Below, in pieces: positions 6,968 through 52,733 of a DNA stretch of 64,000 nt (the first letter of the stretch is position 1; each line of letters begins with the position of its first letter). The DNA is from an uncultured Candidatus Saccharibacteria bacterium (GTDB lineage Bacteria; Patescibacteriota; Minisyncoccia; Phycocordibacterales; UBA918). A program made the position numbers and the translations under genes. Location of the stretch: NCBI GenBank assembly GCA_964350735.1, contig CAYGKO010000002.1:26134-90133 (forward strand), in the 5' to 3' direction. The notes under the pieces are model-generated. The model searched no databases. It had not been told where the DNA came from and saw only the letters and a program-made list of their open reading frames with translations.

Positions 6968-7327
6968 ATGAAAAAAATTGCCCTTATCGAAGATGATCAG
7001 TTTATTCAGGATTTTGTGTCTGGTAAATTGATAGAAGCTGGTTATGCCGTCACTGTCTGTAGTGATGGTGAAGCTGCTGTGGGTCATATTATCGAACAAA
7101 TACCGGATGTGGTTTTACTTGATCTTGATCTGCCAAACTTGTCTGGTCATGAAATTCTTAAAGTGTTACAAGTAGAAGAAAGTACTAAGAACATACCCGT
7201 GATTATTTTTTCCAATAACGATGACCCAGATTTGAAAGAGAAAATGATCGCCGCTGGAGCGAAAGATTTCTATATGAAAGCGGTGACTAACCCTGCAGAA
7301 CTCATCTCAAAGATTGAGTCGGTGTAA
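6968..7327 (+). CDS. response regulator, receiver (REC) domain only
   Basis: CheY-like fold: acidic pocket DD near the N-terminus, phospho-acceptor Asp in VVLLDLDLP, conserved K in the AAGAKDFYMK region. No output domain. Confidence 0.8.
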   Translation: MKKIALIEDDQFIQDFVSGKLIEAGYAVTVCSDGEAAVGHIIEQIPDVVLLDLDLPNLSGHEILKVLQVEESTKNIPVIIFSNNDDPDLKEKMIAAGAKDFYMKAVTNPAELISKIESV

Positions 7328-37287: not shown

Positions 37288-40056
37288 ATGCATAAAAAGT
37301 TTGATAATCAGGCGATTGAAAAGAAGTGGCAAGAGAAATGGGCGGCTAATGGTCTGTACGACGTAACTGAACGTGATACTTCTAAGGAGAAAGAGTACGT
37401 ACTGGTAGAACTGCCATACCCTTCGGGAAACCTGCATATTGGCCACTGGTACGCCTTTGGTGTGCCTGACATCTACGTGCGTTTCCAGCGTATGATGGGG
37501 AAGCAAGTGATCTACCCAATGGGCTTTGATGCCTTTGGTCTGCCAGCCGAAAACGCTGCCATAAAACGCGACATCAATCCTAAAGAGTGGACTGAAGGAA
37601 ACATTGAGTACATGAAAGAGCAGCTGGGCAATATGGGTAATTCCTATACCTGGAATATGACCGCTTCCACTACAGATCCCGACTATTACAAATGGACGCA
37701 GTGGATGTTCACGCAGTTTTTTGAGAAAGGGATTGCGTATCGTGGTAAAGGGAAAGTGAATTGGTGTCCTGGCTGCAATACTGTGATCGCAAATGAGCAA
37801 GTGCTGCCAGACGACACCTGTGAGCGCTCGGGTGACAAGATCGAGAAGAAAGAAATGCCGCAATGGATGCTGAAGATCACTGATTACGCTGACCGACTGG
37901 TAGATGATCTCGATGGACTTGATTGGCCAGAGCATATCAAAGAAGCGCAACGACAATGGATTGGCCGCTCAGAAGGGGCTGAGATTGATTTTAAGCTGTC
38001 TACTGATGATGCGATGACTGTCTTCACCACTCGCCCTGATACACTTTTTGGTGCCACCTACATGGTGCTAGCGCCTGAACACTCGCTAGTAACTAAGAAT
38101 AAAGACCAGATCTCCAACTGGGACGAAGTAGTACGATATATCGAACTAACCAAGCAGAAAGATGAGCAGGATCGTCTTAACGACACCAAGGAAAAGACCG
38201 GAGTGAAATTAGAAGGAATTACTGCTACCAATCCAGCTTCTGGAGAAGAAATTCCAGTCTATATCGCTGATTACGTCTTAGCTGGTTATGGAACCGGCGC
38301 GATTATGGCAGTACCCGCTCATGATGAGCGTGATTCGGCATTTGCAAAGAAGTTTGGTATTGATATTAAACAAGTTATTGAACCAGTTTCGGATCATCCA
38401 GTAAAAGCAATTGGTGCTTTTCTCATTGATGGCAATGGTGAAATATTATTGCAGAAGCGTACGGCAGATGCGCCGACTGGAGCGGGATTACATGGGATTT
38501 TTGGTGGCAGCATTGAATCAGGTGAGACAATGAAACAAGCTCTGGTTCGTGAAATTCAAGAAGAGTTAGAGATTGAAGTTGAAGAAAATAACATTCGTAT
38601 TTTATACTTTAAAGAGTCGCGTGAGCAAGGGAAAAACCTAGCCGCAGCTATCGTATCTGGTGTTGACTTTAGCAAAGCAATATTGCATGAAGGTGAAGCA
38701 ATTGTACGAGTAAAATCATTAGCTGAAATTGATAACAAGGATCGTAATCACATCTGGGAGACAGCTAATGACGATGATATTCATTCGCTATATTCTGGAG
38801 TAGGTGCTCTTTACAATTCAGCTGAATTTAACGGCATGAGTTCAGAAGAGGCTAAGAAAGCCATCACAGAGAAAGTGGGTGGGCGAATGACAAATACGTA
38901 TCGTCTCCGTGACTGGTCTGTCGGACGACAACGATATTGGGGGGTACCGATTCCGATTGTATATGATCCCGAAGGAAAGGCGCACCCAGTACCTAAAGAG
39001 CATTTGCCCTGGATTCTGCCGGAAGATGTGGACTTCAAACCGACTGGAGAACCACCATTAGCTAAAAGTGCTGAGCTGAAAAAACGAACTGAAGATATTT
39101 TTGGAGTCGGCTGGACGCCTGAAGTAGAAACTCTCGACACCTTCGTGGATTCTTCGTGGTATTTCATGCGGTATATCGACAATCAAAACTCAGAATCGCT
39201 CGCTAGCCTTGAGGCGCAGAAAGATTGGATGCAGGTGGATACGTACTTTGGTGGGGCTGAACACACCACCATGCACTTGCTGTATTCTCGCTTTTGGCAA
39301 AAAGCACTCTATGATCTTGGGGTCGCAGTACATGATGAACCTTATAAGCGACGAATCAACCGTGGACTCATTCTCGGTCCGGACGGGAACAAAATGAGTA
39401 AAAGTAAAGGCAATGTGATTGACCCAGACGAACAAGTGAAGTTAGTGGGTGCAGATGCGGTGAAGTTGTATCTCGGCTTCATGGGACCGTATGAAGGAAC
39501 CAACTATCCGTGGGACATGGGAGGTATTGCTGGCATCAGACGCTTCTTAGAGCGCCTAAATGGGCTTACAGGACACATTGTGGAAGCTGAACCAGTGCCA
39601 GTTACTAAACAAGTTCATAAAACTATCATTAAGTTGCGTGAGGACATTCCGCAGCATAAATTTAATACTGCAATCAGTGCGGTGATGGTGTTGGTGAATC
39701 TTATTGAAAAGGAAGGAGTTTCAAAAGAGTCATACCGGACTATTCTGCAAATGATGGCCCCATTGGCCCCGCATTTAACAGAAGAATTATGGGCTGATTT
39801 GGGAGAGAGTAATTCAATTCACCTTGAAAGTTTCCCCGAAGCAGATACAGCGTTAGCAAAAGATGAGCTAGTCACTATTGGAGTGCAGATTAATGGAAAA
39901 GTACGAGGTGATATTACTATTGCTCCTGATGCCTCTGAAGAAGAGGCTTTGGCTGCTGTAGCGGATGATGAGCAGCTGCAAAAACGCCTGACTGAAGGGG
40001 AGATGCAGAAAGTGATTTATAAAGCTGGAAAAATACTTAATATCATTGTTAGTTAG
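37288..40056 (+). CDS. leuS: leucine--tRNA ligase with an embedded Nudix-like domain
   Basis: HIGH (NLHIGHWYAF), CP1 editing domain (TTRPDTLFGATYMVLAPEH ... GTGAIMAVPAHDERD), YRLRDWSVGRQRYWG, KMSKSKGN and a C-terminal anticodon-binding region. About 140 extra residues sit between the editing domain and the LYNSAEFNG segment. Confidence 0.9.
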   Translation: MHKKFDNQAIEKKWQEKWAANGLYDVTERDTSKEKEYVLVELPYPSGNLHIGHWYAFGVPDIYVRFQRMMGKQVIYPMGFDAFGLPAENAAIKRDINPKEWTEGNIEYMKEQLGNMGNSYTWNMTASTTDPDYYKWTQWMFTQFFEKGIAYRGKGKVNWCPGCNTVIANEQVLPDDTCERSGDKIEKKEMPQWMLKITDYADRLVDDLDGLDWPEHIKEAQRQWIGRSEGAEIDFKLSTDDAMTVFTTRPDTLFGATYMVLAPEHSLVTKNKDQISNWDEVVRYIELTKQKDEQDRLNDTKEKTGVKLEGITATNPASGEEIPVYIADYVLAGYGTGAIMAVPAHDERDSAFAKKFGIDIKQVIEPVSDHPVKAIGAFLIDGNGEILLQKRTADAPTGAGLHGIFGGSIESGETMKQALVREIQEELEIEVEENNIRILYFKESREQGKNLAAAIVSGVDFSKAILHEGEAIVRVKSLAEIDNKDRNHIWETANDDDIHSLYSGVGALYNSAEFNGMSSEEAKKAITEKVGGRMTNTYRLRDWSVGRQRYWGVPIPIVYDPEGKAHPVPKEHLPWILPEDVDFKPTGEPPLAKSAELKKRTEDIFGVGWTPEVETLDTFVDSSWYFMRYIDNQNSESLASLEAQKDWMQVDTYFGGAEHTTMHLLYSRFWQKALYDLGVAVHDEPYKRRINRGLILGPDGNKMSKSKGNVIDPDEQVKLVGADAVKLYLGFMGPYEGTNYPWDMGGIAGIRRFLERLNGLTGHIVEAEPVPVTKQVHKTIIKLREDIPQHKFNTAISAVMVLVNLIEKEGVSKESYRTILQMMAPLAPHLTEELWADLGESNSIHLESFPEADTALAKDELVTIGVQINGKVRGDITIAPDASEEEALAAVADDEQLQKRLTEGEMQKVIYKAGKILNIIVS
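38386..38808 (+). other. Nudix-hydrolase-like insertion within LeuRS (aa 367-507)
   Basis: IGAFLIDGNGEILLQKRTADAPTGAGLHGIFGGSIESGETMKQALVREIQEELEIEV fits the Nudix box Gx5Ex7REUxEExGU except the terminal G is replaced by E. The equivalent E. coli LeuRS linker is about 20 aa. Confidence 0.6.
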
Positions 40057-40160: not shown

Positions 40161-41186
40161 ATGATCACATTTAAACCAAAACAAGCCACCAAACGACTTT
40201 TGTCGGTATTACCCGACCGAGCCCGTGACGTGCTAGAGAAGCGCTATGGTCTCGGCAAAGACGCTGATACTGCAACCCTGGAAGCGATTGGACAGACATA
40301 CGGTATTACTCGAGAACGTGTGCGACAGATTGAAAATTATGGTATTCAGTCCATCCAAAAATCAGATGTTTATGGTGAATTCCAGGCTATCTTTGAAGAA
40401 CTGCACGCTATCATTGACGAGCTTGGTGGAGGTCTCATTGCTGAACATATTCTCCTGGAAGAGATTGCAGCTGATCCAATCCTACGTAATCATATTTATT
40501 TCCTCCTCGTACTAGGCGATCCTTTCTACCGATCAAAAGAAAACCCTTCGTACTCCCACCGATGGTTTACTGAGAAGAAGATTGCTGACATAGTCGAAAA
40601 AGGCTTGAAGAGTGTTCATGCTTCTTTAGATCGTGATGAGCTTGTTTCAGAAGAAGAAATCCTAACTCGTTTTAAAAATGAACTGATTGAGTTAGCAGAC
40701 AAACATGATGAAAAAGTTCTCAAACGATGGCTCTTGATTTCAAAAGATATTGCTCCAAACCCGCTTGGAGAGTGGGGACACGCATCAAGTCCGAATGTTC
40801 GAGTCAAAGGAATTCGTGACTACGCGTATCTTGTAGTAAAGCGCCATGGTTCACCCATGCACTTCCGTGAAGTGGCGGAAGCAATTGAGGAACTGTTCAC
40901 TAAGAAAGCCCACACTGCTACTACTCATAACGAATTGATCAAAGATGGCCGTTTTGTATTAGTTGGACGAGGTCTATACGCACTGACAGAGTGGGGTTAT
41001 TCAGCTGGGGTGGTAAAAGATGTGTTACGAGACATCTTAGATACACATGGTCCGCTATCACGGGAAGAAATCATTGATAAAGTTCGCAAAGAACGTTACG
41101 TGAAAGACAATACTATCGTTGTTAATCTCCAAGATATGAACTTGTTTAAGCGACTTAGTAACGGAACCTACGTGGTGGCTGAGTAG
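40161..41186 (+). CDS. DNA-binding protein with N-terminal sigma-70 region 4 and C-terminal HARE-HTH
   Basis: The N-terminus LPDRARDVLEKRYGL...TLEAIGQTYGITRERVRQIE aligns to RpoD region 4.2. The C-terminus PMHFREVAEAIEEL...KDGRFVLVGRGLYALTEWGY matches the HARE-HTH of the RNAP delta subunit. Confidence 0.6.
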   Translation: MITFKPKQATKRLLSVLPDRARDVLEKRYGLGKDADTATLEAIGQTYGITRERVRQIENYGIQSIQKSDVYGEFQAIFEELHAIIDELGGGLIAEHILLEEIAADPILRNHIYFLLVLGDPFYRSKENPSYSHRWFTEKKIADIVEKGLKSVHASLDRDELVSEEEILTRFKNELIELADKHDEKVLKRWLLISKDIAPNPLGEWGHASSPNVRVKGIRDYAYLVVKRHGSPMHFREVAEAIEELFTKKAHTATTHNELIKDGRFVLVGRGLYALTEWGYSAGVVKDVLRDILDTHGPLSREEIIDKVRKERYVKDNTIVVNLQDMNLFKRLSNGTYVVAE

Positions 41187-41257: not shown

Positions 41258-42655
41258 ATGTTAGAGCATCTTTTTGGTAATCCAAAAGATATTGCAGCCA
41301 AGATACCCATTTTGGCTTTTTTCATTCGCTTTGTTTCTTCTAATGACTCAGACTATGGTGGATTTGTAGCCATTCTTTCTGTGGTGCTTTTATTTTACGG
41401 TCTCGGATTTACTGACATTTCCCAAGCGCAAGTTTTCTCTATTGTTATCGCACTCACTCCACTCTGGCTTACTTGGTATATCTTTGTAAATTTCTTTGAT
41501 AAATGGTCAGAGTACACTGGTAAGAAATTTGGTTTATATAACGGCAGGACTACTTTGCGCATCAATCTTCCCCAAGAGGTATTAAAGTCTCCTGAAGCTA
41601 TGGAGTTCGTAATTTCTCAAATTCATAACACGGCTAATCCCGACAACTTAATGCAGACCTATTTACAGGGTAAACGTCCATTAAATTTTAGTTTCGAATT
41701 AGTTTCCATTGGTGGAGATGTGCGTTTTTATGCAAACCTACCAACTAGTAAAACAAAAGCTGCTTTTGAAGCAAACATGTATGCCCAATATCCTGGGGTT
41801 GAAATAGTCGAAGAACCGGTTGATTATGCAGCTGAAATTGGACTCGATAGTGACTGGGAGTGGTTTAGTTGTCATATGAGAAAGAAAAAGGACGAAGTAT
41901 TTCCGATTAAAACATATATTGATTTTGGACTGGATAAGCTCCCAAAAGAAGAAGAGAAAGTAGACCCAATGACACCAATGCTAGAAGTACTTGGTGGTGT
42001 TGGTCCATCAGAGCGTTTATATATTCAGTACATCTGTACACCTTTTCGACCATCAAGTTTTTCAAATGGACAATTAATGTTTGGGGAAGGATCTGGCTGG
42101 GATAAAGGAGTGACAGCAGCTCTAAATAAAATTATGAACCGCGATCCAGACACGAGGCAAGCTATAGACAGTGGGAACTCTGAAGAAGTGGCTCGACTTA
42201 CTCAAGGTGAACGAGATGCCGTCGCAGCAATGGAAAGAAATGCGGGTAAGTACGCCTATAACGTTGGTATCCGCTGGGTATATGCATCTCGCCCAGGGCA
42301 TTTCGCTGGTGATCGGATCAATCCGATTATTCGGTCGTTTAGTCAGTATGACATTATCAGCGATATTAGAAATCAAATTGGTGTAGCCTGGAGAACAGAC
42401 ATTGATTACAAAGACTTGATCCCCGGTTCATACAAGAAAATTGAAGCACTTAAAGTGCAGGAATTAAAAGAGTACAAATTGAGAAAATACTTTAATAAAG
42501 GGGGCGCAGACGGTATGAAGATATTTACAGCCGAGGAGCTAGCTACCATGTTTCATATTCCTGGTCAGGTTGCATTTACTCCTACCCTAAGTCGTGTTCC
42601 ATCTACTCGAAGTGAAGCGCCAAATAACTTACCGGTTGGAAATTTACCTGAATAA
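41258..42655 (+). CDS. hypothetical protein: N-terminal 3-TM region plus a soluble domain of about 380 aa (low GC)
   Basis: No recognised domain. Ends in the motif EELATMFHIPGQVAFTPTL. Confidence 0.4.
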   Translation: MLEHLFGNPKDIAAKIPILAFFIRFVSSNDSDYGGFVAILSVVLLFYGLGFTDISQAQVFSIVIALTPLWLTWYIFVNFFDKWSEYTGKKFGLYNGRTTLRINLPQEVLKSPEAMEFVISQIHNTANPDNLMQTYLQGKRPLNFSFELVSIGGDVRFYANLPTSKTKAAFEANMYAQYPGVEIVEEPVDYAAEIGLDSDWEWFSCHMRKKKDEVFPIKTYIDFGLDKLPKEEEKVDPMTPMLEVLGGVGPSERLYIQYICTPFRPSSFSNGQLMFGEGSGWDKGVTAALNKIMNRDPDTRQAIDSGNSEEVARLTQGERDAVAAMERNAGKYAYNVGIRWVYASRPGHFAGDRINPIIRSFSQYDIISDIRNQIGVAWRTDIDYKDLIPGSYKKIEALKVQELKEYKLRKYFNKGGADGMKIFTAEELATMFHIPGQVAFTPTLSRVPSTRSEAPNNLPVGNLPE

Positions 42656-43678: not shown

Positions 43679-44722
43679 ATGGAAACAGTATTTGTCGGAT
43701 TATCTGGTGGTGTTGACTCGTCAGTCGCCGCTTTAAGACTTAAAAACCAAGGCTACAATGTCGTGGGGGTTTTTATCAAAGTCTGGCAGCCAGATTTTCT
43801 TGAATGCAACTGGGAGGCTGAGCGACTTGACGCTATGCGAGTAGCTGCTCATTTAGAAATACCATTTCTCACGTGCGATGCAGAAGAGACCTATCGTACT
43901 GAAGTGGGTGAATTTTTTATCAACGAATATAAAAAAGGACGAACCCCAAACCCTGATGTTCTCTGTAACCAACAGGTAAAGTTCGGAGCTTTCTTGCGAT
44001 TTGCACTGGGGAAAGGAGCTGACTTTGTCGCTACCGGACACTACGCCCAACGAGTTGTAACCGAGGCAGGTATTGAGCTACACCGAGGCGTGGATACCAA
44101 TAAAGATCAATCGTACTTCCTCTGGACGCTTACTCAAGCTCAGCTGCAACATATTTTACTCCCCGTAGGAAATAGTCCTAAAGAACAAATTAGAAAGGAA
44201 GCAGCCGCCGCTGGTATCCCGGTCGCAGCCAAAAAGGATAGTCAGGGAGTTTGTTTCTTAGGACATATTGATATTCCAGAATTTTTAGCACACTTTATAA
44301 CACTCGAAACCGGAGCTGTTTTAAATACCGCTGGGGAACACATTGGTGAACATAAAGGGGCGTTGGTCTATACCATTGGCCAGAGGCAAGGATTTGATGT
44401 GACTAAAAAAGATGGAGCCCAAAAAGCTTTATACGTTGTAGATCGTGATATTCTTGAAAACACCATTACCGTACGTGCAGAACCACCTATTTTAAAAAAA
44501 GAGAATTTTGTTACCCTTCAAGATATACATTGGATAACAGAAGAATCTCAAAAAAATTTTGAAATTGAAGCTCAATTTCGATATCGCCAAACACCATTCG
44601 CTGTTCGACTTTTACCAAATGGCACCCTAGAGCTTAAAGTAACTACTGAAGCAGTTGCGGCTGGTCAATCCTGTGTATTGTATAGGGGCAGTCTGTGCCT
44701 TGGAGGTGGTATCATAGCCTAA
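43679..44722 (+). CDS. mnmA: tRNA-specific 2-thiouridylase MnmA
   Basis: PP-loop VGLSGGVDSSVAA, catalytic Cys (LCNQQVKFG) and the GHYAQ region. Confidence 0.9.
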   Translation: METVFVGLSGGVDSSVAALRLKNQGYNVVGVFIKVWQPDFLECNWEAERLDAMRVAAHLEIPFLTCDAEETYRTEVGEFFINEYKKGRTPNPDVLCNQQVKFGAFLRFALGKGADFVATGHYAQRVVTEAGIELHRGVDTNKDQSYFLWTLTQAQLQHILLPVGNSPKEQIRKEAAAAGIPVAAKKDSQGVCFLGHIDIPEFLAHFITLETGAVLNTAGEHIGEHKGALVYTIGQRQGFDVTKKDGAQKALYVVDRDILENTITVRAEPPILKKENFVTLQDIHWITEESQKNFEIEAQFRYRQTPFAVRLLPNGTLELKVTTEAVAAGQSCVLYRGSLCLGGGIIA

Positions 44723-45553
44723 ATGGTTACGGTAATAAAAGCTGATGGAACAGCGGAGGAGTTTCAAATCCAAAAATTAAAACGTTCGCTTCGTCGATCA
44801 GGTGCAGTTCGAGAAGAAGTACGCGAAATTGCTGCCGAAATAGAAAAGGAACTAGTTGATGGAATGAAGACTCAAGAGATCTACTCACGAGCCTTTTCAC
44901 TATTGCGTGACAGTGAGCAGCCAGTGGCCGCACGTTATTCACTTCGAAGAGCCTTGTTTGGACTTGGTCCTACCGGATTTCCATTCGAAGATTTCCTAGC
45001 TCGCTTGTTTGAAACCGAAGGGTATACAACAAGAACTAGGCTAGAGCTTAAAGGGAACTGTACCACTCATGAAATTGATGTAGCTGCATACAAAGATGAT
45101 CACTCATTCGTGGCGGAAGCAAAATTTCATGCCCGGCCAGGAATCAAATCTGATCTCCAGGTTGTAATGTATTCCAACGCTAGAAAAATGGATTTGGTGG
45201 ATGCAAAGATCTGCAACGCTGATATATGTGGTGTAACAAACCTCATGGTTATTACAAATACCAAATTTACTCACACTGCAGAATCATATTCTGAGTGTGC
45301 AGGACTTGAATTATTGAGCTGGGACTATCCAAAACAAAACAATTTACACGATCGCATTCAACGAGCCGGCATCTATCCCATCACTGTTTTGCAGTCACTG
45401 TCCGGCGCTCAAAAAAAGGCTTTAATTGAACGTGGGGTAATAATTTGTGGCGATATTCTTAAAAAACCCCACCTTCTTCGGCACATACACATCAGCACTA
45501 AAAAAACTGAGGCAGTACTTTCTGAAGCTCGTCAACTCTGTAAGGAAATATAA
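44723..45553 (+). CDS. ATP-cone domain fused to Mrr-like restriction-endonuclease (PD-(D/E)xK) domain
   Basis: The N-terminus MVTVIKADGTAEEFQIQKLKRSL resembles the ATP-cone of NrdR/RNR. Residues 75-150 (FEDFLARLFETEGYTTRT...HEIDVAAY...VAEAKF) follow the Mrr_cat D...(E/Q)xK layout. Confidence 0.5.
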   Translation: MVTVIKADGTAEEFQIQKLKRSLRRSGAVREEVREIAAEIEKELVDGMKTQEIYSRAFSLLRDSEQPVAARYSLRRALFGLGPTGFPFEDFLARLFETEGYTTRTRLELKGNCTTHEIDVAAYKDDHSFVAEAKFHARPGIKSDLQVVMYSNARKMDLVDAKICNADICGVTNLMVITNTKFTHTAESYSECAGLELLSWDYPKQNNLHDRIQRAGIYPITVLQSLSGAQKKALIERGVIICGDILKKPHLLRHIHISTKKTEAVLSEARQLCKEI

Positions 45554-45602
45554 AAGCTGATATACTTGCAGACATACAAGTGATTATTTCAGTATTATAG
45601 TT

Positions 45603-46154
45603 ATGTCAGAAGCAGAAAAGCAAGAAGGGCAAAAGACAGTAGTCGCCTTTATCGCTGGATTACTTATCGGTGGTCTACTCGTTTGGGTCTTCAGTGGTCC
45701 AACACATGATGGTGAGCATAAGGAAGGAATGCATGATGATGAAGCAGGCGAAATGGCTGAAGAAATGATGTCGGATGACTCGTCAGACGAAGCAGTGTCT
45801 ACTGGTCAAGAAATGACCATTGCGGCAGTTGAAATGCAAACTGGTGATGGTGCTATCGAGGTATCAGATCAGGCAGCTAGTTCTGCAGTTGTGATTGATA
45901 GCGCAACCTTCCCAAATGATGACGGCTGGATCGCTGTGCGATCATACCAAAATGACCAACTTGGAAACATTCTTGGAGCAGCTCGATTTAGTAAGGAACA
46001 AGGTTTGGTACCAGAAGAAGTACCACTACTAGTCCCTACTACAGTTGGAAACTCATACGCGGTAGTCTTCTTTACGGAAGATGGTAACCGTGAGTTTAAT
46101 CTTTCAGGCGATGCTCAAGTAGAAGGTGTGTGGTCAACGTTTGTGGCTAAATAG
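45603..46154 (+). CDS. hypothetical acidic membrane-anchored/secreted protein
   Basis: N-terminal TM (VVAFIAGLLIGGLLVWVF), then an Asp/Glu-rich low-complexity stretch and a beta-rich C-domain. Confidence 0.4.
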   Translation: MSEAEKQEGQKTVVAFIAGLLIGGLLVWVFSGPTHDGEHKEGMHDDEAGEMAEEMMSDDSSDEAVSTGQEMTIAAVEMQTGDGAIEVSDQAASSAVVIDSATFPNDDGWIAVRSYQNDQLGNILGAARFSKEQGLVPEEVPLLVPTTVGNSYAVVFFTEDGNREFNLSGDAQVEGVWSTFVAK

Positions 46155-46171
46155 CTTCTATCGATTGACAG

Positions 46172-46198
46172 AAAAAAGCCCTCATAAGGGCTTTTTTC
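46172..46198 (+). terminator. rho-independent terminator (aaaagccct-cata-agggctttttt)
   Basis: Hairpin followed by a T6 run. Confidence 0.65.
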
Positions 46199-46221
46199 TT
46201 GCGTGGTATACTAGATACATT

Positions 46222-47076
46222 ATGGCTGATTACGTATACAAATATAATCCAAATCGAAACGCTGATTGGAATTATGGTGGCAAAAAATGGCGGTTATCTC
46301 GCTCAAAACTCGACTATTTTATTGAGTGTCCTCGCTGTTTTTATGTTGATAACAAACTAGGGACAAAGCGACCTGGTTTTCCATCGTTCAATTTAAACAT
46401 TGCGGTAGATGAACTGTTTAAAAAAGAATTTGACGTACATCGAGCAGCTGGAACACGTCATCCAATTATGGAGCAGTACGAGATTGACGCTGTGCCGTTT
46501 CAGCACAAAGACATTGATACCTGGCGCGAAAACTTTGAAGGCATTGAATACAAAGACACTGAGACCGGTATGACTATCAGTGGAGCGGTGGATGATATTT
46601 GGGTCAAGCCAAACGGGGATCTCATTATTATTGACTACAAATCTACTTCTAAAGACGGGACTATAGACAAGTTAGGAGATAGTCCTTGGGAGCAGCAATA
46701 TACTAGACAACTCGGTGTGTACAAATGGCTCTTGGAACAAAATGGCTTTAAAGTAGCCGATATCGGATACTTGGTGTACGCAAATGCTAGTAAAGATGAG
46801 GCTGGATTTGATAACAAACTAATTTTTGAAAGTACTTTGGTCTCGGTGCCAACAGATACTGACTGGATCGATGGAACTTTGGATAAAATTAAGGCGTGTC
46901 TTGAAAGTGAATCAATCCCGCTCTCTGGCCCAAATTGTGAATTTTGCCCGTACCGTGAAGCTGCCGGGAAAAAGCTCTTAGCAATCCATCAAGCTCAAAA
47001 GACAGCCGCTAAAGAGACTGGTAGCACCAACCCTTCTGACACCATCGCAGCTATCAAGAGTAAATATGCCAAGTAG
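46222..47076 (+). CDS. Cas4/RecB-like PD-(D/E)xK nuclease with Fe-S cysteine cluster (DUF83-like), stand-alone
   Basis: GAVDDIWVKPNGDLIIIDYKST is the RecB-family D...D/EYK motif. N-terminal CPRC plus C-terminal C-x13-C-x2-C match the Cas4 4-Cys pattern. I chose the start at MADYVYK over the track start at 46126. Confidence 0.65.
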   Translation: MADYVYKYNPNRNADWNYGGKKWRLSRSKLDYFIECPRCFYVDNKLGTKRPGFPSFNLNIAVDELFKKEFDVHRAAGTRHPIMEQYEIDAVPFQHKDIDTWRENFEGIEYKDTETGMTISGAVDDIWVKPNGDLIIIDYKSTSKDGTIDKLGDSPWEQQYTRQLGVYKWLLEQNGFKVADIGYLVYANASKDEAGFDNKLIFESTLVSVPTDTDWIDGTLDKIKACLESESIPLSGPNCEFCPYREAAGKKLLAIHQAQKTAAKETGSTNPSDTIAAIKSKYAK

Positions 47077-47326
47077 TTTTACAGACCAAGTAAAAAAACT
47101 TGTTGCTGCAATCCCAAAAGGTGCGACCATGACGTATAAAGAAGTGGCTAGCGCGGCTGGTAACCCAAACGCTTCTCGAGCCGTAGCAAACATTATGGCA
47201 GCTAATTACGACCCAAAAGTACCGTGTCACCGTGTGATACGCACAGATGGTAGTTTGGGTGGTTATAACCGTGGTGGTATAGTAAAAAAACGAGAACTGT
47301 TACTAAGTGAAGGTGTAATACTCTAA
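47066..47326 (+). CDS. MGMT-family protein (O6-alkylguanine-DNA alkyltransferase DNA-binding/active-site domain only)
   Basis: YKEVASAAGNPNASRAVANIMAANYDPKVPCHRVIRTDGSLGGY carries the PCHRV active-site motif. Overlaps the nuclease gene by 11 nt. Confidence 0.75.
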   Translation: MPSSFTDQVKKLVAAIPKGATMTYKEVASAAGNPNASRAVANIMAANYDPKVPCHRVIRTDGSLGGYNRGGIVKKRELLLSEGVIL

Positions 47327-47333
47327 TTTTATT

Positions 47334-47768
47334 ATGGATCCAAATCAGAGACGACTTGAGGGAGAGCTTAAAAATATGGAGCGCGATCTAGACAGATTGC
47401 GAAAGGATCAAGATAAAAACCAAAGGGAACTTCGAACAAAAGCGGATAACTTAAAGACCCTACAAAGAAAGAGAGACCTTGCAATGGTAAAGTTTGAAAA
47501 AGCAGAAGCCAACTTGCGGAAATTTCAGTCTGAGCATGACACTGCAAAAACAAACGCTGATGAACTGAATCAGAAGTTTGAAACCGAGGAGAACGCAATC
47601 GTTCGCCCGCTCTCACAAAAAGCCATGGAGTTCGAACAATCTATCAATCATCTTGAACAAGAGTACGGCCGTAAAAAACAAGAACTTGGTATTTTGATTG
47701 AACGAATTGCTCGTGATAATGAGCGGAGTCGTGTCGCTGCAAATGATAATCGTGGTAAAGCTGCTTAA
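47334..47768 (+). CDS. hypothetical coiled-coil protein
   Basis: Charged heptad-rich sequence with no recognisable domain. Confidence 0.35.
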   Translation: MDPNQRRLEGELKNMERDLDRLRKDQDKNQRELRTKADNLKTLQRKRDLAMVKFEKAEANLRKFQSEHDTAKTNADELNQKFETEENAIVRPLSQKAMEFEQSINHLEQEYGRKKQELGILIERIARDNERSRVAANDNRGKAA

Positions 47769-47778
47769 TCAAATTTCT

Positions 47779-48033
47779 ATGTCAAAATCAAGTGAAATCT
47801 TAAAAAGTGAACTGGGAGACGAAGATGTTAAAGTACAAAGACGAGCTATAGAAGATGTTTTGAACGAGTTATTTTTATATACCGAAACCCAACAAGATGG
47901 AGAGGAAGATCTGAACAGTCTGGAAACCAACACTTCAGAATACAAAAGACTCAATCAAAAAATCAGGGAGCGCAAAGATATTTTTAAAATACTTAGAAAT
48001 AAGGCTGATCAACTAAGAAGAGCAATCAAGTAG
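47779..48033 (+). CDS. hypothetical coiled-coil protein (84 aa)
   Basis: I chose the start at MSKSSEIL. The 47698 start in the track overlaps the upstream gene. Confidence 0.3.
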   Translation: MSKSSEILKSELGDEDVKVQRRAIEDVLNELFLYTETQQDGEEDLNSLETNTSEYKRLNQKIRERKDIFKILRNKADQLRRAIK

Positions 48034-48035
48034 AT

Positions 48036-48635
48036 ATGTATTCATACCGCATTGAACAAGCTATCAAAGCAGCCAGTATCCTGCACAAAGGGCAAGTGCG
48101 TAAGGGGGAAGTGCCTTTACCCTATATTTCACATTTAGTAGCGGTGGCGTTTATTACAGCCGATTATACTGAGCACGGAGATACCGTTATTGCTGCTCTT
48201 TTACACGATACTGTTGAAGATACTGACTACACGTCTGAAGAGCTGCTCGAAGACTTTGGCGGTGATGTGCAACAAATAGTACTTGCTCTCTCTGAACCAG
48301 CAGATGAAGAAGGAGAATATACCTGGCGAGAGAAAAAACAAAAATACGCCAAACAACTAAAGAAAGCCCCTGAAGAAGCTCTGATAGTTGCGGCTGCGGA
48401 TAAGATTCACAACATGCGTACGATTGTCGAAGAGTATTATGATGATCACATTCGCTTTATGAACGAATTCCGTGGCTCACTCGATGATCGAGCCTTGATG
48501 TATGAAGATATCAGCAACGTACTCAACGCCCGGCTGAAAAATGATATAGTGGCAGAGTTCAACCACGTATTTACTGAATATAAAAATTTCCTTTCCGATG
48601 TCAAAAAAACCCAAGCCCGCAAAGAAGAGCTTTAA
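48036..48635 (+). CDS. HD-domain (p)ppGpp hydrolase-like protein (RelA/SpoT hydrolase domain only; small alarmone hydrolase)
   Basis: LHKGQVRKGEVPLPYISHLVAVA...AALLHDTVEDT matches the SpoT HD hydrolase core. There is no synthetase domain. Confidence 0.7.
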   Translation: MYSYRIEQAIKAASILHKGQVRKGEVPLPYISHLVAVAFITADYTEHGDTVIAALLHDTVEDTDYTSEELLEDFGGDVQQIVLALSEPADEEGEYTWREKKQKYAKQLKKAPEEALIVAAADKIHNMRTIVEEYYDDHIRFMNEFRGSLDDRALMYEDISNVLNARLKNDIVAEFNHVFTEYKNFLSDVKKTQARKEEL

Positions 48636-50445
48636 GTACAAAACCACAGCTACACTTCCCAAACTAGCGAAAGTCAAAACTGAGTGGGACTTAGCAAGTT
48701 TGTACTATTCATCTGAAAATGACCCGCAGATTGAAAAAAATATATCTAAGACTGAGAAAGCTTATTTAGCTTTCGCAAAAAAGTGGAAAAATAAAAAGTT
48801 TACAACTTCAGCAAAAACTCTACTAGTTGCCTTATCTGAAAAGGAAAAATTGGCAAAAATGCCAGAAGCTGCTCGTGCTGGTCGTTATTTCTCGTTCAGG
48901 ACTTGCTTGAACGCAAAAGATGAGGTGGCCAACAAAAAACAAGCCCTACTGGGACAAAGATTTAGGAAACTATCAAGCGAACTATTATTTTTCGGTCTTG
49001 AGATTGGAAAACTTTCAAAAACAGAACAAAAAAAACTACTGGCAGATACTTCATTGCAGCATTTTCATTATTACTTACACCAAATATTCTTATCTTCTAA
49101 ATATGACCTTTCTGAGGCCGAAGAGAAAATAATTAAACTCAAGAGAAACCAATCTTACGGAATGTGGACTGATGCAGTTGAGAGAATCATCAGTAACAGA
49201 ACCATAAGTTGGAAAGGTGCCGAAATGGCTATCCCTGAAGCACTCGAAACAATCAACACGCTTGGGACTAAAGACAAACGAAAACTTTGGGATATTCTCA
49301 TTTCTCAGATGGAACAAATTGGCGAATTCGCTGAGCATGAATTTAATGCAATTATTACCGATGTTCGTACGGAAGAAGATTTACGTGGCTACAAAAAACC
49401 GTACAGCTCAACCGCACTGAGTTACGAAGATTCGGAGAAAAGTATTGAGAACCTAGTGAGCACTGTTTCAACTGAAGGCTTTGAACTTAGTAAAAAATTC
49501 TACAAACTTAAAGCCGCTGCACACGGCGTTGATAAGCTGCACTACACTCAAAAATACGACTCAATTGGACAGGCTCCGTCAATTCCGTGGAAGCAAGCAG
49601 TCGAGATATGCCGGGATGTTTTTTATAACGTAAAAAATGAATACGGATCAGTTTTCGATCGGATGTTAGCAAATGGACAAATTGATGTTAGTCCCAAGAA
49701 AGGGAAGCGTGGTGGTGCCTTTATGAGCGCTGAAGTGAGTCAGCCCACACAGGTATTTCTCAATCATTTGGACGACTTTAAATCTCTAGAAACCCTAGCA
49801 CACGAAATGGGGCATGCTATTCATGCTGAACGTAGTAAAAAACAAACCCCTTTTTATGAAGGTCACTCCATCACAACTGCTGAAACGGCCAGCACTTTGT
49901 TTGAAAACTTACTATTTGACGCTGTCTACGACCAGGCTGAAGCAAAAACTAAACCAATTCTTTTGCATGACAGAATCACAAGAGATATTGCCACTATTCA
50001 GCGACAAATCGCCTTCTTTAATTGTGAACTTGAAATCCACAATACTATCAGCTCTCAAGGGGCAATGACCAATGACGAGTTGCGAGACTGTATGTATTCA
50101 CATCTAAAAACGTATCTGGGCCCTGCCATATCACTGGACAAGAGAGACGGATACTCCTACGTATATATTCCACACCTACGCTATGGATTTTATGTATACA
50201 CGTACACATTTGGAATCCTAATGAGTACCATCATGGCAAATCACTACAAAGCAGATCCTGGTTACATTGATGAGATTGATAAATTCCTATGCTCAGGGGC
50301 TGCTGCAAGCGTGGCCGATATATTCGCTTCGATTGGCATTGATACCAGCAAAGCAAACACGTTTTCAAACGCGTTGCAAAATCATGCCGCAGACATCAAA
50401 TCATTTGAGCAATACACAAAGCAAACAACGAAACGCAAAAAATAG
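48598..50445 (+). CDS. pepF: oligoendopeptidase F (M3B peptidase)
   Basis: LAHEMGHAIH zinc motif (HEXXH) and the PepF-type N-terminus (WDLASLY...). Overlaps the HD gene by 38 nt. Confidence 0.85.
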   Translation: MSKKPKPAKKSFKYKTTATLPKLAKVKTEWDLASLYYSSENDPQIEKNISKTEKAYLAFAKKWKNKKFTTSAKTLLVALSEKEKLAKMPEAARAGRYFSFRTCLNAKDEVANKKQALLGQRFRKLSSELLFFGLEIGKLSKTEQKKLLADTSLQHFHYYLHQIFLSSKYDLSEAEEKIIKLKRNQSYGMWTDAVERIISNRTISWKGAEMAIPEALETINTLGTKDKRKLWDILISQMEQIGEFAEHEFNAIITDVRTEEDLRGYKKPYSSTALSYEDSEKSIENLVSTVSTEGFELSKKFYKLKAAAHGVDKLHYTQKYDSIGQAPSIPWKQAVEICRDVFYNVKNEYGSVFDRMLANGQIDVSPKKGKRGGAFMSAEVSQPTQVFLNHLDDFKSLETLAHEMGHAIHAERSKKQTPFYEGHSITTAETASTLFENLLFDAVYDQAEAKTKPILLHDRITRDIATIQRQIAFFNCELEIHNTISSQGAMTNDELRDCMYSHLKTYLGPAISLDKRDGYSYVYIPHLRYGFYVYTYTFGILMSTIMANHYKADPGYIDEIDKFLCSGAAASVADIFASIGIDTSKANTFSNALQNHAADIKSFEQYTKQTTKRKK

Positions 50446-50777: not shown

Positions 50778-52733
50778 TTGGGTAATTGTATGTATATGGT
50801 ATCTGGAAACGACATCCGCACAAAGTACTTAGCTTTTATGGAGAAAAACGGCCACGCTGTCGTACCTTCATCCGCCTTAGTGCCAGAAAATGACCCAACC
50901 ACACTTTTTACCGGCAGTGGAATGCAGCCCATGGTTCCTTTTTTGCTGGGCGAAACGCACCCGAAGGGTACGCGTATAGCTGATTCGCAGAAATGTTTTC
51001 GAGCGGAAGACATTGAAGAGGTTGGTGACAACAGTCACACCACTTTCTTTGAAATGCTGGGCAACTGGTCACTCGGTGACTACTTCAAGGCGGAGCAAAT
51101 ACCTTGGATTGCCAGCTTCTATCTTGATGAAGTTGGACTTGATCTGAACAATTTCTACATAACTGCCTTTATTGGTGACGAGGTAGCTGGAGTACCCAAA
51201 GATACTGAGGCAGTTGAAATTTGGCAACAACTATTAGCAGACCGTGGGGTCAGTAATGGTGTGGGAGAAATGGGTTCAGCTGACGAGGCCGCTAAGCGTG
51301 GCATGAAAGACGGGGAGCGTATCTTCTACTATGACGCTAAAGAAAACTGGTGGAGTCGGGCTGGGGTACCCGACAATATGCCTATCGGTGAACCTGGTGG
51401 GGGTGACAGCGAGATGTTTTATGATTTTGGTACTGAGCATGATCCAAAGTTTGGTGAGCACTGTCATCCTGCTTGTGACTGCGGACGCTTTATGGAGATC
51501 GGCAACTCAGTCTTTATGGAATACATCAAAACTGACAATGGTTTTGAGTCTTTACCAGCCAAGAATATTGATTTTGGTGGAGGATTAGAACGAATTGCAG
51601 CAGCAGTAAACAACGATCCTGATGTTTATAAAGTTGATTTACTTTGGGGAGTTATCCAGAAAATCGAAGAGCTATCTGGCAAAAAATACAATGATAACAA
51701 AACAGCGTTTAGAATAATCACGGACCATATTAGAGGAGCAGTGTTTATGATTAATGACGGTGTTCTGCCCAGCAATACTGATCAGGGATATTTCGTTCGT
51801 CGCCTACTGCGGCGAGCGGTGCGCTATGCTGATCAACTTGAAATTGAAAGTGGTCAATTCCCAAAAATTGCTGACGGTGTAATTAATCTTTTTAAAGAGC
51901 ATTACCCTTCACTTGAGGAGCACAAACTAGAAATTAAGGGAGCAATCTCTGCAGAAGAAATCCAGTTCCGAAAAACTTTAGAAAAAGGCATGAAGCAATT
52001 CAACAAACTTTCGCTACAAGTACACGTGAATACAAAAATAGTCGATGGTAAAAAAGTAATCGACAAAGACACTGCTCGAGGCGTAAAAGCTATCAGCGCC
52101 CAAAATGCTTTTGATTTATTTACCACATACGGTTTTCCAATTGAACTAACTGAGGAAATCGCGGCTGAAAAAGAACTGGTTGTTGACCGTAAGGGCTTCG
52201 AAAAGCTAATGGAAGAGCATCGAACTTTATCTCGGGCTGGTGCCGAACAAAAATTCAAAGGCGGCTTAGCTGATCAGTCAAACATTGTTGTCCAGTACCA
52301 CACAACCACTCACCTTATGCTTGCAGCTTTACGCCATTTCCTTGGAAATCATGTACACCAAGCTGGTTCAAATATCACTGGTGAACGCATGCGTTTTGAT
52401 TTCACTCATCCTGAAAAAATTGAGAGAGAGACGCTCGATAAAATTGAAAATTGGGTAAATAGTGCTATCAAGACTGGAGGATTGGTAACTACAGATATGA
52501 TGACCAAAGATGCTGCTCAGGCTGACGAAACTATTGAAGCCAGCTTCTGGGACAGGTATCCTGATGAAGTGAAAGTGTACTCAATGACCGGAACTGATGG
52601 TACTGTGTTTTCTCGTGAACTATGCGGCGGTCCACACGTAGAAAAACTTGAAGATATTAAGGGTGAGTTCAAGATAAAGAAAGAGGAGTCTTCATCGGCT
52701 GGGGTCCGTCGAATCAAAGCAACACTCGTGTAG
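50778..52733 (+). CDS. alaS: alanine--tRNA ligase, short form lacking the C-terminal C-Ala/DHHA1 domain
   Basis: FFEMLGNWSLGDYFK, the FTGSGMQPMV region, and editing-domain HTTTHLMLAALRHFLGNHVHQAGS and CGGPHV motifs. The ORF ends at 651 aa where AlaRS is usually about 870. The true start may be 50796 (MVSGND). Confidence 0.85.
   Translation: MGNCMYMVSGNDIRTKYLAFMEKNGHAVVPSSALVPENDPTTLFTGSGMQPMVPFLLGETHPKGTRIADSQKCFRAEDIEEVGDNSHTTFFEMLGNWSLGDYFKAEQIPWIASFYLDEVGLDLNNFYITAFIGDEVAGVPKDTEAVEIWQQLLADRGVSNGVGEMGSADEAAKRGMKDGERIFYYDAKENWWSRAGVPDNMPIGEPGGGDSEMFYDFGTEHDPKFGEHCHPACDCGRFMEIGNSVFMEYIKTDNGFESLPAKNIDFGGGLERIAAAVNNDPDVYKVDLLWGVIQKIEELSGKKYNDNKTAFRIITDHIRGAVFMINDGVLPSNTDQGYFVRRLLRRAVRYADQLEIESGQFPKIADGVINLFKEHYPSLEEHKLEIKGAISAEEIQFRKTLEKGMKQFNKLSLQVHVNTKIVDGKKVIDKDTARGVKAISAQNAFDLFTTYGFPIELTEEIAAEKELVVDRKGFEKLMEEHRTLSRAGAEQKFKGGLADQSNIVVQYHTTTHLMLAALRHFLGNHVHQAGSNITGERMRFDFTHPEKIERETLDKIENWVNSAIKTGGLVTTDMMTKDAAQADETIEASFWDRYPDEVKVYSMTGTDGTVFSRELCGGPHVEKLEDIKGEFKIKKEESSSAGVRRIKATLV

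Follow-up and report, generated by a model that had tools for sequence, protein, structure and literature searches.

The ATP-cone nuclease and its locus

The stretch of DNA analysed here, called the window throughout (64,000 nucleotides of contig CAYGKO010000002.1, positions 26,134 to 90,133, from an uncultured Candidatus Saccharibacteria bacterium), contains between positions 44723 and 48635 a gene for a nuclease with an N-terminal ATP-cone, followed by genes for a membrane protein, a Cas4-like nuclease, a very small O6-alkylguanine-DNA alkyltransferase (MGMT), two coiled-coil proteins, and an HD-type hydrolase. A first-pass annotation, made from the sequence, had proposed that these genes form a DNA-maintenance cluster and that the ATP-cone nuclease could be a defence or repair switch. 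Domain searches, structure predictions, and comparisons with relatives point to another reading, to which we assign a probability of about one half: the genes are independent housekeeping genes in an inherited core-genome order, and the ATP-cone protein would be an adenine-nucleotide-gated nuclease acting in turnover or salvage, not in defence. The locus itself is best read as a densely packed part of the core genome of Paceibacteria, passed on vertically, and neither a dedicated system nor a defence island. Its features are the following:

43679–44722, + strand: mnmA, tRNA 2-thiouridine synthase (NCBIfam NF001138, E 6.8e-117), upstream housekeeping flank
44723–45553, + strand: 276-aa protein with an ATP-cone, an AF1548-type PD-(D/E)xK nuclease core, and a helical, helix-hairpin-helix (HhH)-like C-terminal domain (Pfam, PDB 1Y88, AlphaFold2, Foldseek)
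44729–44953, + strand: ATP-cone of this protein (aa 3–77)
44975–45319, + strand: its nuclease core (aa 85–199)
45374–45538, + strand: its C-terminal domain (aa 218–272)
45603–46154, + strand: membrane-anchored acidic protein, 183 aa, with an N-terminal transmembrane helix, a D/E-rich tract, and a beta-rich C-terminal domain
46222–47076, + strand: solo Cas4-like RecB-family nuclease, 284 aa (PDDEXK_1, Cas_Cas4, four invariant Cys)
47066–47326, + strand: single-domain MGMT (C-terminal domain only), 86 aa (DNA_binding_1, PCHRV)
47334–47768, + strand: coiled-coil ORF 1, 144 aa, K/E/R/Q-rich (sub-threshold coiled-coil matches only)
47779–48033, + strand: coiled-coil ORF 2, about 84 aa from an internal ATG, the most likely start (from the sequence)
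48036–48635, + strand: stand-alone HD_4 hydrolase, 199 aa, small-alarmone-hydrolase/Mesh1-like, with no synthetase domain
48598–50445, + strand: pepF, M3 oligoendopeptidase F (TIGR02290, E 2.2e-95), downstream housekeeping flank
50778–52733, + strand: alaS, alanyl-tRNA synthetase (Pfam tRNA-synt_2c, E 2.5e-115), downstream anchor of the syntenic block

All genes from 43.6 to 52.7 kb are on the + strand and closely packed, and nearly all genes of the window are likewise co-directional and tightly packed. The ATG of the ATP-cone gene comes directly after the TAA stop codon of mnmA, and the MGMT start overlaps the Cas4-like stop by 11 nt, both junctions having been read in the sequence. Further flanks in the window include YchF, leucyl-tRNA synthetase (LeuRS), a protein with sigma-r4 and HARE-HTH domains, MltG/YceG, ribosomal protein S4, and RpoA; the surroundings of the locus are core genome. 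No CRISPR array was found in the window and no cas gene among the annotated genes from 34425 to 58189. The open reading frames proposed by the first-pass annotation are real and lie on the + strand where it had placed them, the ATP-cone protein having 2965 and the Cas4-like protein 4535 homologues in the 90% identity collection.

The proposal that the 44723–45553 product joins an ATP-cone to an Mrr-like PD-(D/E)xK endonuclease domain was confirmed. The protein matches the ATP-cone family PF03477 (E 1.4e-9, 38.8 bits against a cut-off of 25.8, model positions 2–84 of 88), Mrr_cat PF04471 (E 5.5e-6, 26.9 bits against a cut-off of 21), and AF1548-like_C PF22357 (E 6.6e-6), and its residues 91–272 align in phmmer with AF1548 of Archaeoglobus fulgidus (PDB 1Y88) at E 1.6e-29. 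In the AlphaFold2 model (pLDDT 83), the cone is a beta-hairpin followed by four helices (strands 3–5 and 11–13; helices 16–25, 30–43, 50–62, and 68–79). Foldseek searches with this model gave 1Y88 as the top match (E 1.4e-13, TM 0.73 on target), next the nuclease domains of Can2 and Cdn1, and then the cones of ribonucleotide reductase (RNR) and NrdR; the cone matches, to RNR, NrdD, NrdB, and NrdR, have probabilities of 0.97–1.0 at E-values of only 0.02–0.1. A sequence search of the PDB with the ATP-cone segment alone returned designed helical repeats only, so that the assignment of the cone relies on Pfam, on the predicted structure and its Foldseek matches, and on an hhalign comparison with the E. 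coli NrdA cone (probability 82%, E 1.1e-5). In this alignment K6, E12, K18, and T50 of the cone fall on K9, E15, K21, and T55 of NrdA, which, together with R10 and H59, we take to be nucleotide-contacting residues. Nucleotide binding by the cone is plausible, with a less certain ligand.

Across 41 diverse family members, with identities down to 33%, residues K6, G9, E89, H116, E117, D119, E132, and K134 are invariant, and so is the linker GP.G..FE. Since the catalytic set (E89, H116, E117, D119, E132, K134) is intact in 41/41 members, the protein is probably an active nuclease. The C-terminal domain carries a 'G-I/L-S-x2-K-x4-L' hairpin that recalls HhH motifs and would therefore suit binding to the nucleic-acid backbone rather than to a specific sequence. 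In the Paceibacteria clade C113, C164, C169, and C192 are all invariant; C113 and C192 are near-universal in the family, and C164 and C169 sit in a Paceibacteria-only loop that is absent from AF1548. The four cysteines may form a lineage-specific metal site; such a site was rejected as a family-wide feature, C164 and C169 being limited to the Paceibacteria clade.

In ribonucleotide reductases and NrdR, ATP-cones serve as allosteric switches, the binding of ATP or dATP acting through a change of oligomeric state. The window nuclease has the same sensor domain as RNR of classes I and III and NrdR (by Pfam, predicted fold, and hhalign), but its output domain is a nuclease and not a reductase or a zinc ribbon. 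Can2/Card1 and Cdn1, among which Can2 and Cdn1 are the next-best structural matches of the nuclease core after AF1548, follow the same design logic, in which a sensor of an adenine-nucleotide-derived ligand is joined to a non-specific PD-(D/E)xK nuclease, gating being a prediction for the window protein. These enzymes use a CARF or related sensor and are activated by cyclic oligoadenylate; the window nuclease differs in sensor fold and ligand, has no CRISPR or CBASS neighbourhood, and belongs to the core and not the accessory genome in Candidate Phyla Radiation (CPR) bacteria. It shares the Pfam catalytic family Mrr_cat with E. coli Mrr, a type IV modification-dependent restriction endonuclease. 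Its N-terminus, however, is an ATP-cone with no Mrr_N winged-helix, its gene is fixed in 80/80 genomes (see below) rather than patchy or mobile, and nothing points to modification dependence. AF1548, which comes from structural genomics, shares a homologous nuclease core and the helical C-terminal domain; its crystallised chain of 199 residues aligns only with residues 91–272 and thus shows no ATP-cone, and it lacks the extra loop with C164 and C169. The catalytic residues predicted for AF1548, D38, E51, and K53, correspond to D119, E132, and K134 of the window protein (PMC1821046).

The best 120 homologues of the ATP-cone protein are 66–82% identical to it. The family comprises 1173 clusters at 50% identity with E<=1e-3, or 413 with E<1e-30, nearly all of them full length and of 275–290 aa, and a chlamydial query retrieved more than 6500 clusters at 90% identity. 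Carriers were found among CPR bacteria, Bacteroidota, Chlamydiota, Planctomycetota, and Acidobacteriota, and include the culturable genera Pontibacter, Psychroserpens, and Chitinophaga, which make the family directly testable. Databases do not agree on a name for the family ('ATPase', 'restriction endonuclease', 'YraN family', 'Holliday junction resolvase-like', 'ATP cone domain-containing protein'). The family is thus catalogued in databases and uncharacterised in the literature; the only relevant item found was the prediction, made in 2007 from Global Ocean Sampling (GOS) data, of AF1548 as a restriction-type nuclease (PMC1821046). A nuclease under ATP-cone control would extend the logic of the cone from making nucleotides to freeing them from polymers, and would add a new type of sensor to the ligand-gated PD-(D/E)xK nucleases represented by Can2 and Card1.

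Gene order in Paceibacteria and in deeper CPR lineages

In order to compare the locus with its relatives, 80 species-level genomes carrying the ATP-cone protein were collected and each window protein was located in them by tblastn. The closest relatives are metagenome-assembled genomes (MAGs) labelled Paceibacteria, Kaiserbacteria, Nomurabacteria, or Parcubacteria. The same order, 465-aa protein, yceG, mnmA, ATP-cone gene, membrane protein, Cas4-like gene, MGMT, HD gene, optional pepF, and alaS, is kept at every locus as far as the contig reaches. Upstream of the ATP-cone gene, mnmA was present at 80/80 loci, and the acidic membrane protein occupied the same slot at 80/80 (about 48% identity). 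The Cas4-like gene and the HD gene were found at all loci with enough flank (72/72 and 66/66, respectively), MGMT at 57/66 loci spanning the interval from the Cas4-like gene to the HD gene, being missing in 9/66, and pepF at 33 loci. Mean identities over the 80 genomes were about 65% for the ATP-cone protein, 70% for the Cas4-like protein, 64% for MGMT, and 60% for the HD protein, and for the flanks about 61% for MnmA, 68% for AlaS, and 44% for YceG. The nucleases of the window change no faster than translation genes and always keep their place, contrary to the behaviour of defence genes. Since the housekeeping flanks (yceG/mltG, mnmA, pepF, alaS) are kept equally well, the synteny singles out no functional module; the equal conservation of the flanks indicates vertically inherited core-genome synteny, not a mobile island. 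Genes for UDG (uracil-DNA glycosylase), PCMT, MgtC, beta-CASP, phosphorylase, or Prs-like proteins were found neither in the window nor at the 80 close loci.

More distant CPR bacteria keep parts of this order. At one such locus (L088, with an ATP-cone protein 43% identical), the genes run ATP-cone, MgtC, an unassigned gene, PDDEXK_1, overlapping MGMT, PCMT, UDG, PepF, another unassigned gene, and AlaS. At L086 they run GatC, ATP-cone, (HSP20), and AlaS, with neither the Cas4-like gene nor MGMT, and L105 and L121 have the Cas4-like gene without the ATP-cone gene; alaS is kept even in distant CPR loci. A second CPR sample of 80 metagenome loci (L089–L168) was anchored on Cas4-like relatives of the L088 protein (51–63% identity). 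Among the 43 loci with more than 3 kb upstream, the ATP-cone gene lay upstream of the Cas4-like gene in 19, directly adjacent in 9, and in the other 24 the Cas4-like gene stood alone in unrelated, non-recurrent contexts. MGMT followed the Cas4-like gene at 12/20 syntenic loci but at most at 1/33 outside this class, and UDG was present at 12/20 syntenic loci. At L088 (2942–4348) and at syntenic loci of the second sample, UDG, and sometimes a PCMT-type methyltransferase, come after MGMT, where the window has the coiled-coil ORFs and the HD gene; in other CPR lineages the slot between the two nucleases holds MgtC instead of the acidic membrane protein, or is empty. This is an old CPR neighbourhood with a flavour of DNA repair (two nucleases, an alkyltransferase, a glycosylase), every member of which is separable and which is embedded in housekeeping synteny.

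Such neighbours could be explained by a DNA-repair supra-operon of CPR bacteria, in which both nucleases would process damaged or broken ends, MGMT and UDG would remove alkyl and uracil lesions, and the cone would tie repair to dNTPs. This explanation draws on the ATP-cone, Cas4-like, MGMT order in 57/66 Paceibacteria loci, on the distance between the Cas4-like stop and the MGMT start (-14 to +8 nt in most loci), on the 19/43 divergent loci with the ATP-cone gene upstream, and on MGMT and UDG in the syntenic class, of which L088 is an example; four successive DNA enzymes would also be improbable by chance where repair genes are few. However, yceG, mnmA, pepF, and alaS are kept too, and much of the order is accounted for by the inertia of a genome that is compact and co-directional. 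A membrane protein, acidic or MgtC, is interleaved. MGMT is lost in 9/66 loci and all but confined to the syntenic class of the second sample, and the two nuclease genes each occur alone (L086 for the one; L105, L121, and 24/43 Cas4-like loci for the other). The coupling of the Cas4-like nuclease to MGMT, which the first-pass annotation had taken for an alkylation-repair or end-processing module, is borne out by the tight spacing and by the CPR string from the ATP-cone gene through Cas4-like and MGMT to UDG, but not by the loci that lack MGMT. Outside CPR, as described below, repair neighbours were absent from 12 contexts, in 6 of which the nuclease pairs with a ribonuclease (RNase). Taking both sides together, we regard a repair supra-operon as unlikely, if still worth serious thought.

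Contexts outside CPR and a role in turnover or salvage

The ATP-cone nuclease was further examined in twelve independent contexts from Planctomycetota, Bacteroidota, Chlamydiota, Acidobacteriota, and unassigned MAGs. No Cas4-like, MGMT, or HD_4 neighbour was found in any of the 12. In 6/12 (L087, L169, L170, L174, L175, L177), a 450–470-aa beta-CASP metallo-beta-lactamase nuclease lies immediately adjacent, often overlapping, and matches, along its entire length, TTHA0252, a characterised ribonuclease of Thermus thermophilus (E 3e-79). Another two genes come next in 3/12 contexts, which belong to three phyla (plasmids of Criblamydia and Pontibacter, and the Aridibacter chromosome). The first codes for an archaeal-type phosphorylase of about 500 aa that passes PRK04350 and TIGR02645 and scores 500–506 bits with the AMP phosphorylase model, narrowly below its cut-off of 535; the second codes for a PRK07199 ribose-phosphate diphosphokinase. 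The Criblamydia set is located between phosphoketolase/glycogen phosphorylase (glgP) and acetate kinase. This recurrent set of the nuclease and its partners was noted at 7001–11608 of L169, 1972–6597 of L170, and 7001–11103 of L172, and also at L087, L174, L175, and L177. Three otherwise identical contigs of Planctomycetota (L081–L083) differ downstream of the nuclease, where they have an SNF2/NOV_C helicase, a phage integrase, or unrelated genes, and have a BrxC fragment upstream of it; the site resembles an integration hotspot.

This recurrent company outside CPR points to nucleic-acid breakdown, possibly of RNA, combined with nucleotide or ribose salvage. Since the partners are an RNase and salvage-type enzymes, the substrate may not be DNA, and turnover or salvage is more likely than the 'defence or repair switch' first suggested. 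We propose that the ATP-cone would bind ATP, dATP, or another adenine-nucleotide-related ligand, that binding would shift the oligomeric state, as it does in RNR and NrdR, and that this shift would activate or silence a nuclease without sequence specificity. DNA and/or RNA would then be degraded according to the nucleotide or energy pool, and a 5'->3' exonuclease partner and salvage enzymes would process the products. Reliance on nucleotide salvage has been predicted for CPR bacteria (PMC7304191). A large family with core-translation-like conservation in Paceibacteria may therefore well supply a housekeeping function that is still missing in such salvage-dependent bacteria.

Several observations weigh against an adenine-nucleotide-gated turnover or salvage enzyme. 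Of the NrdA residues named above, R10, which is the Arg in the K-R-D-G motif, has Ala or Ser as its counterpart in most family members, and H59, the His that reads ATP versus dATP, has Tyr; with the canonical Arg and His replaced, the ligand may not be ATP or dATP. In CPR the neighbours of the ATP-cone gene are of DNA-repair type (Cas4-like, MGMT, UDG) and fit a repair role at least as well as salvage, and beta-CASP, phosphorylase, and Prs-like genes were absent within 6–10 kb of the gene at about 160 CPR loci. The tight Cas4-like/MGMT overlap, kept at most loci, might also stem from a true functional link and not just from compaction. The partner proteins outside CPR are 54–66% identical across phyla and two copies are plasmid-borne (Criblamydia, Pontibacter), so the association there may be one mobile module rather than many independent events; no description of such a mobile nuclease/phosphorylase/Prs-like module was found. 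Literature searches combining ATP-cone with nuclease, restriction endonuclease, Mrr_cat, or beta-CASP, or made for AF1548, returned no functional study.

A bolder form of the turnover or salvage reading, which we put forward only tentatively, makes the ATP-cone nuclease the sensor and effector of an unrecognised, widespread recycling pathway gated by the nucleotide pool, working with a partner exonuclease and salvage enzymes. A changed adenine-nucleotide signal would lead to endonucleolytic opening by the ATP-cone nuclease and then to the action of a 5'->3' exonuclease that is non-homologous between lineages: in CPR this would be the solo Cas4-like protein, and in Bacteroidota, Chlamydiota, and others a beta-CASP RNase of the TTHA0252 type. 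The resulting mononucleotides would feed the AMP-phosphorylase-like and PRPP-synthetase-like enzymes. If true, this pathway would be an essential supply line in salvage-dependent CPR bacteria, which would explain the tRNA-synthetase-like conservation of the ATP-cone nuclease.

An anti-phage role appears improbable by comparison with turnover or salvage. It would make the protein a solitary Mrr-type enzyme whose cone senses a phage-induced shift in dATP/ATP and which then cleaves DNA, by way of abortive infection or restriction. The catalytic domain is indeed Mrr_cat, databases often name the protein 'restriction endonuclease', its core resembles that of the ligand-gated Can2 and Cdn1, the copy of Planctomycetota borders the variable region with integrase, SNF2/NOV_C helicase, and BrxC fragment, and two family members are on plasmids. 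In PADLOC-DB 2.0, however, the window nuclease gave only E 0.0012 to PDC-S02, which is not a meaningful match, and the chlamydial operon proteins had no matches except a weak one to CARF_PDDEXK for their ATP-cone nuclease. A search of 50,697 phage records detected no homologue. The nuclease lacks a methyltransferase partner, its neighbours in other phyla are mostly metabolic genes, and the gene has a fixed place in 80/80 CPR genomes with about 65% identity across genera, a conservation like that of MnmA and AlaS. These results contradict the defence switch of the first-pass annotation.

It is very unlikely that the protein is a regulator analogous to NrdR, without nuclease activity in vivo, in which the nuclease fold and the HhH-like domain replace the zinc ribbon and which controls genes for dNTPs or nucleotides. 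Apart from this family, no small protein other than NrdR is known to us in which an ATP-cone is linked to a DNA-binding module, and NrdR cones are among the Foldseek matches. The window codes for no other ATP-cone protein (NrdR or RNR), the very high conservation is typical of regulators with fixed partners, and the nucleotide-metabolism neighbours in other phyla would suit a local regulator. Inactivated PD-(D/E)xK regulators, however, usually lose catalytic residues, and here the whole set is invariant in 41/41 diverse members; nor did a conserved operator come to light, although no search aimed at one was made.

Chance adjacency with no shared history is scarcely credible: although co-directional, tightly packed genes make any neighbours look operon-like, and scans of 41–53 kb were uninformative (fewer promoter-like sites than in shuffled sequence, and no + strand terminator between genes), the order is kept in 80 independent species-level genomes and partly in the second CPR sample, which refutes chance as to shared history and bears out the earlier expectation that the gene order is not accidental.

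Neighbouring genes of the locus and of the window

The interest of the locus rests on the ATP-cone nuclease family, the remaining genes being ordinary: solo Cas4 in CPR has been published, and the mini-MGMT and the small HD hydrolase are of known kinds. The product of 45603–46154 was correctly recognised as acidic, but it is membrane-anchored by its N-terminal transmembrane helix rather than demonstrably secreted; its match to DUF7282 (23.2 bits) is below the cut-off of 27.

The Cas4-like gene starts at the ATG at 46222 and not at the GTG at 46126, giving 284 aa identical to a database protein (P0291). Its product matches PDDEXK_1 (E 2.9e-14) and Cas_Cas4 (E 3.9e-5), scoring better on PF12705 than on PF01930, and reaches 33.3 bits with TIGR00372, below the Cas4 equivalog threshold of 65. 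The RecB-type motifs D124/D125, D138-Y-K140, and Q163..Y167 are invariant, as is C36xxC39...C239xxC242 in 18–20 orthologues. The family assignment, the four cysteines, and the lack of cas neighbours in the first-pass annotation were therefore upheld, but the cysteine spacing is CxxC...CxxC and differs from the C...CxxCx5C of canonical Cas4. The canonical third C-terminal Cys (position 248) is kept as well in 6/18 orthologues and is Ala in the window protein, and one Cys ligand seems to have shifted to the N-terminal CxxC. Its predicted structure (pLDDT 79) matched RecE, AdnAB, Cas4, Exo5, and AddB in Foldseek with TM-scores of only 0.35–0.45, and a search of its alignment profile against the PDB gave nothing significant (Cas4 4R5Q, E 0.63), so the protein is placed by fold comparison only. 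In PADLOC it was matched by generic Cas4 models only.

According to Hudaiberdiev et al. 2017 (PMC5704561), stand-alone genes for Cas4 are over-represented among CPR genomes, including Parcubacteria and Nomurabacteria, and show vertical inheritance and ordinary selection, not that of an arms race. Like the solo Cas4 described there for CPR and DPANN, the window protein stands alone, has no cas neighbours and four cysteines, and is vertically inherited; it is this published CPR 'solo Cas4'. The available part of the same report does not mention the frequent overlap with a mini-MGMT gene. The Solo-Cas4 of Methanosarcina mazei is an Fe-S double-stranded DNA nuclease (PMC12501428), and the window protein is probably an Fe-S-stabilised 5'->3' nuclease that processes DNA ends. 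At two loci of the second CPR sample (L093, L094), the ORF directly upstream of the Cas4-like gene is the C-terminal part of a UvrD/AddA-like helicase-nuclease with RecB motifs and a C-terminal Cys cluster of its own, which recalls the UvrD-Cas4 associations noted in PMC5704561.

The 86-aa MGMT domain with PCHRV and the 11-nt overlap were both as first annotated. The protein matches DNA_binding_1 (E 1e-27, 96.3 bits against a cut-off of 27) and TIGR00589 (74.2 bits against 46.4), and falls below the equivalog cut-offs of Ogt and Ada. It consists throughout of the C-terminal domain; it shares DNA_binding_1 and PCHRV with the Ogt/Ada C-terminal domain and with single-domain 'MGMT family proteins', lacks the N-terminal Methyltransf_1N of full-length Ogt, and, in contrast to ATL proteins, retains the acceptor Cys. 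PCHR[VI] is kept in 79/80 orthologues, and the sequence further contains a presumed Arg finger (RAV), a Tyr, an Asn, and the C-terminal Glu. The protein is most likely a genuine suicide alkyltransferase. Translation of its gene is probably coupled to that of the Cas4-like gene, but the gene is dispensable.

Both coiled-coil ORFs exist, but they do not belong to a conserved cluster: ORF 1 gave only sub-threshold coiled-coil matches, PADLOC added only weak coiled-coil matches to SMC-like models, and no homologue of either ORF was found in the slot between MGMT and the HD gene of any relative (66 loci). At L001–L080 this slot nearly always holds one or two K/E/R/Q-rich coiled-coil ORFs of 90–200 aa, and otherwise nothing; these ORFs are not detectably homologous between genera and form several unrelated clusters. 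They are most likely lineage-specific, fast-evolving fillers whose position and composition are kept and whose sequence is not.

The SpoT-type HD hydrolase was rightly described as free of a synthetase. It matches HD_4 (E 4.7e-17, 62.6 bits against a cut-off of 27.2), aligns only with positions 1–122 of the 687-position RelA/SpoT model TIGR00691, and, as it covers only the N-terminal part, has no synthetase; HDxxED is kept in 69/70 orthologues. As in small alarmone hydrolases and Mesh1, a single HD_4 domain with HDxxED represents the hydrolase part of RelA/SpoT. The protein is most likely a small hydrolase of alarmones or related nucleotide pyrophosphates, with (p)ppGpp, (p)ppApp, or NADPH as candidate substrates.

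Three genes upstream of mnmA showed further features. The LeuRS (37288–40056, + strand, 922 aa) has a NUDIX domain inserted just past the editing domain (aa 372–440, Pfam E 9.7e-13), with an almost intact Nudix box GSIESGETMKQALVREIQEELEI; a matching segment at the same position was present in only 3/55 related loci (L036, L071, L078). The 465-aa protein encoded at 41258–42655 (+ strand) has no Pfam match, lies directly upstream of yceG in 73/80 loci, and has counterparts at 22–35% identity in more distant CPR loci. Between these two genes, 40161–41186 (+ strand) codes for a 341-aa protein in which a Sigma70 region 4 domain and a HARE-HTH domain occur together.

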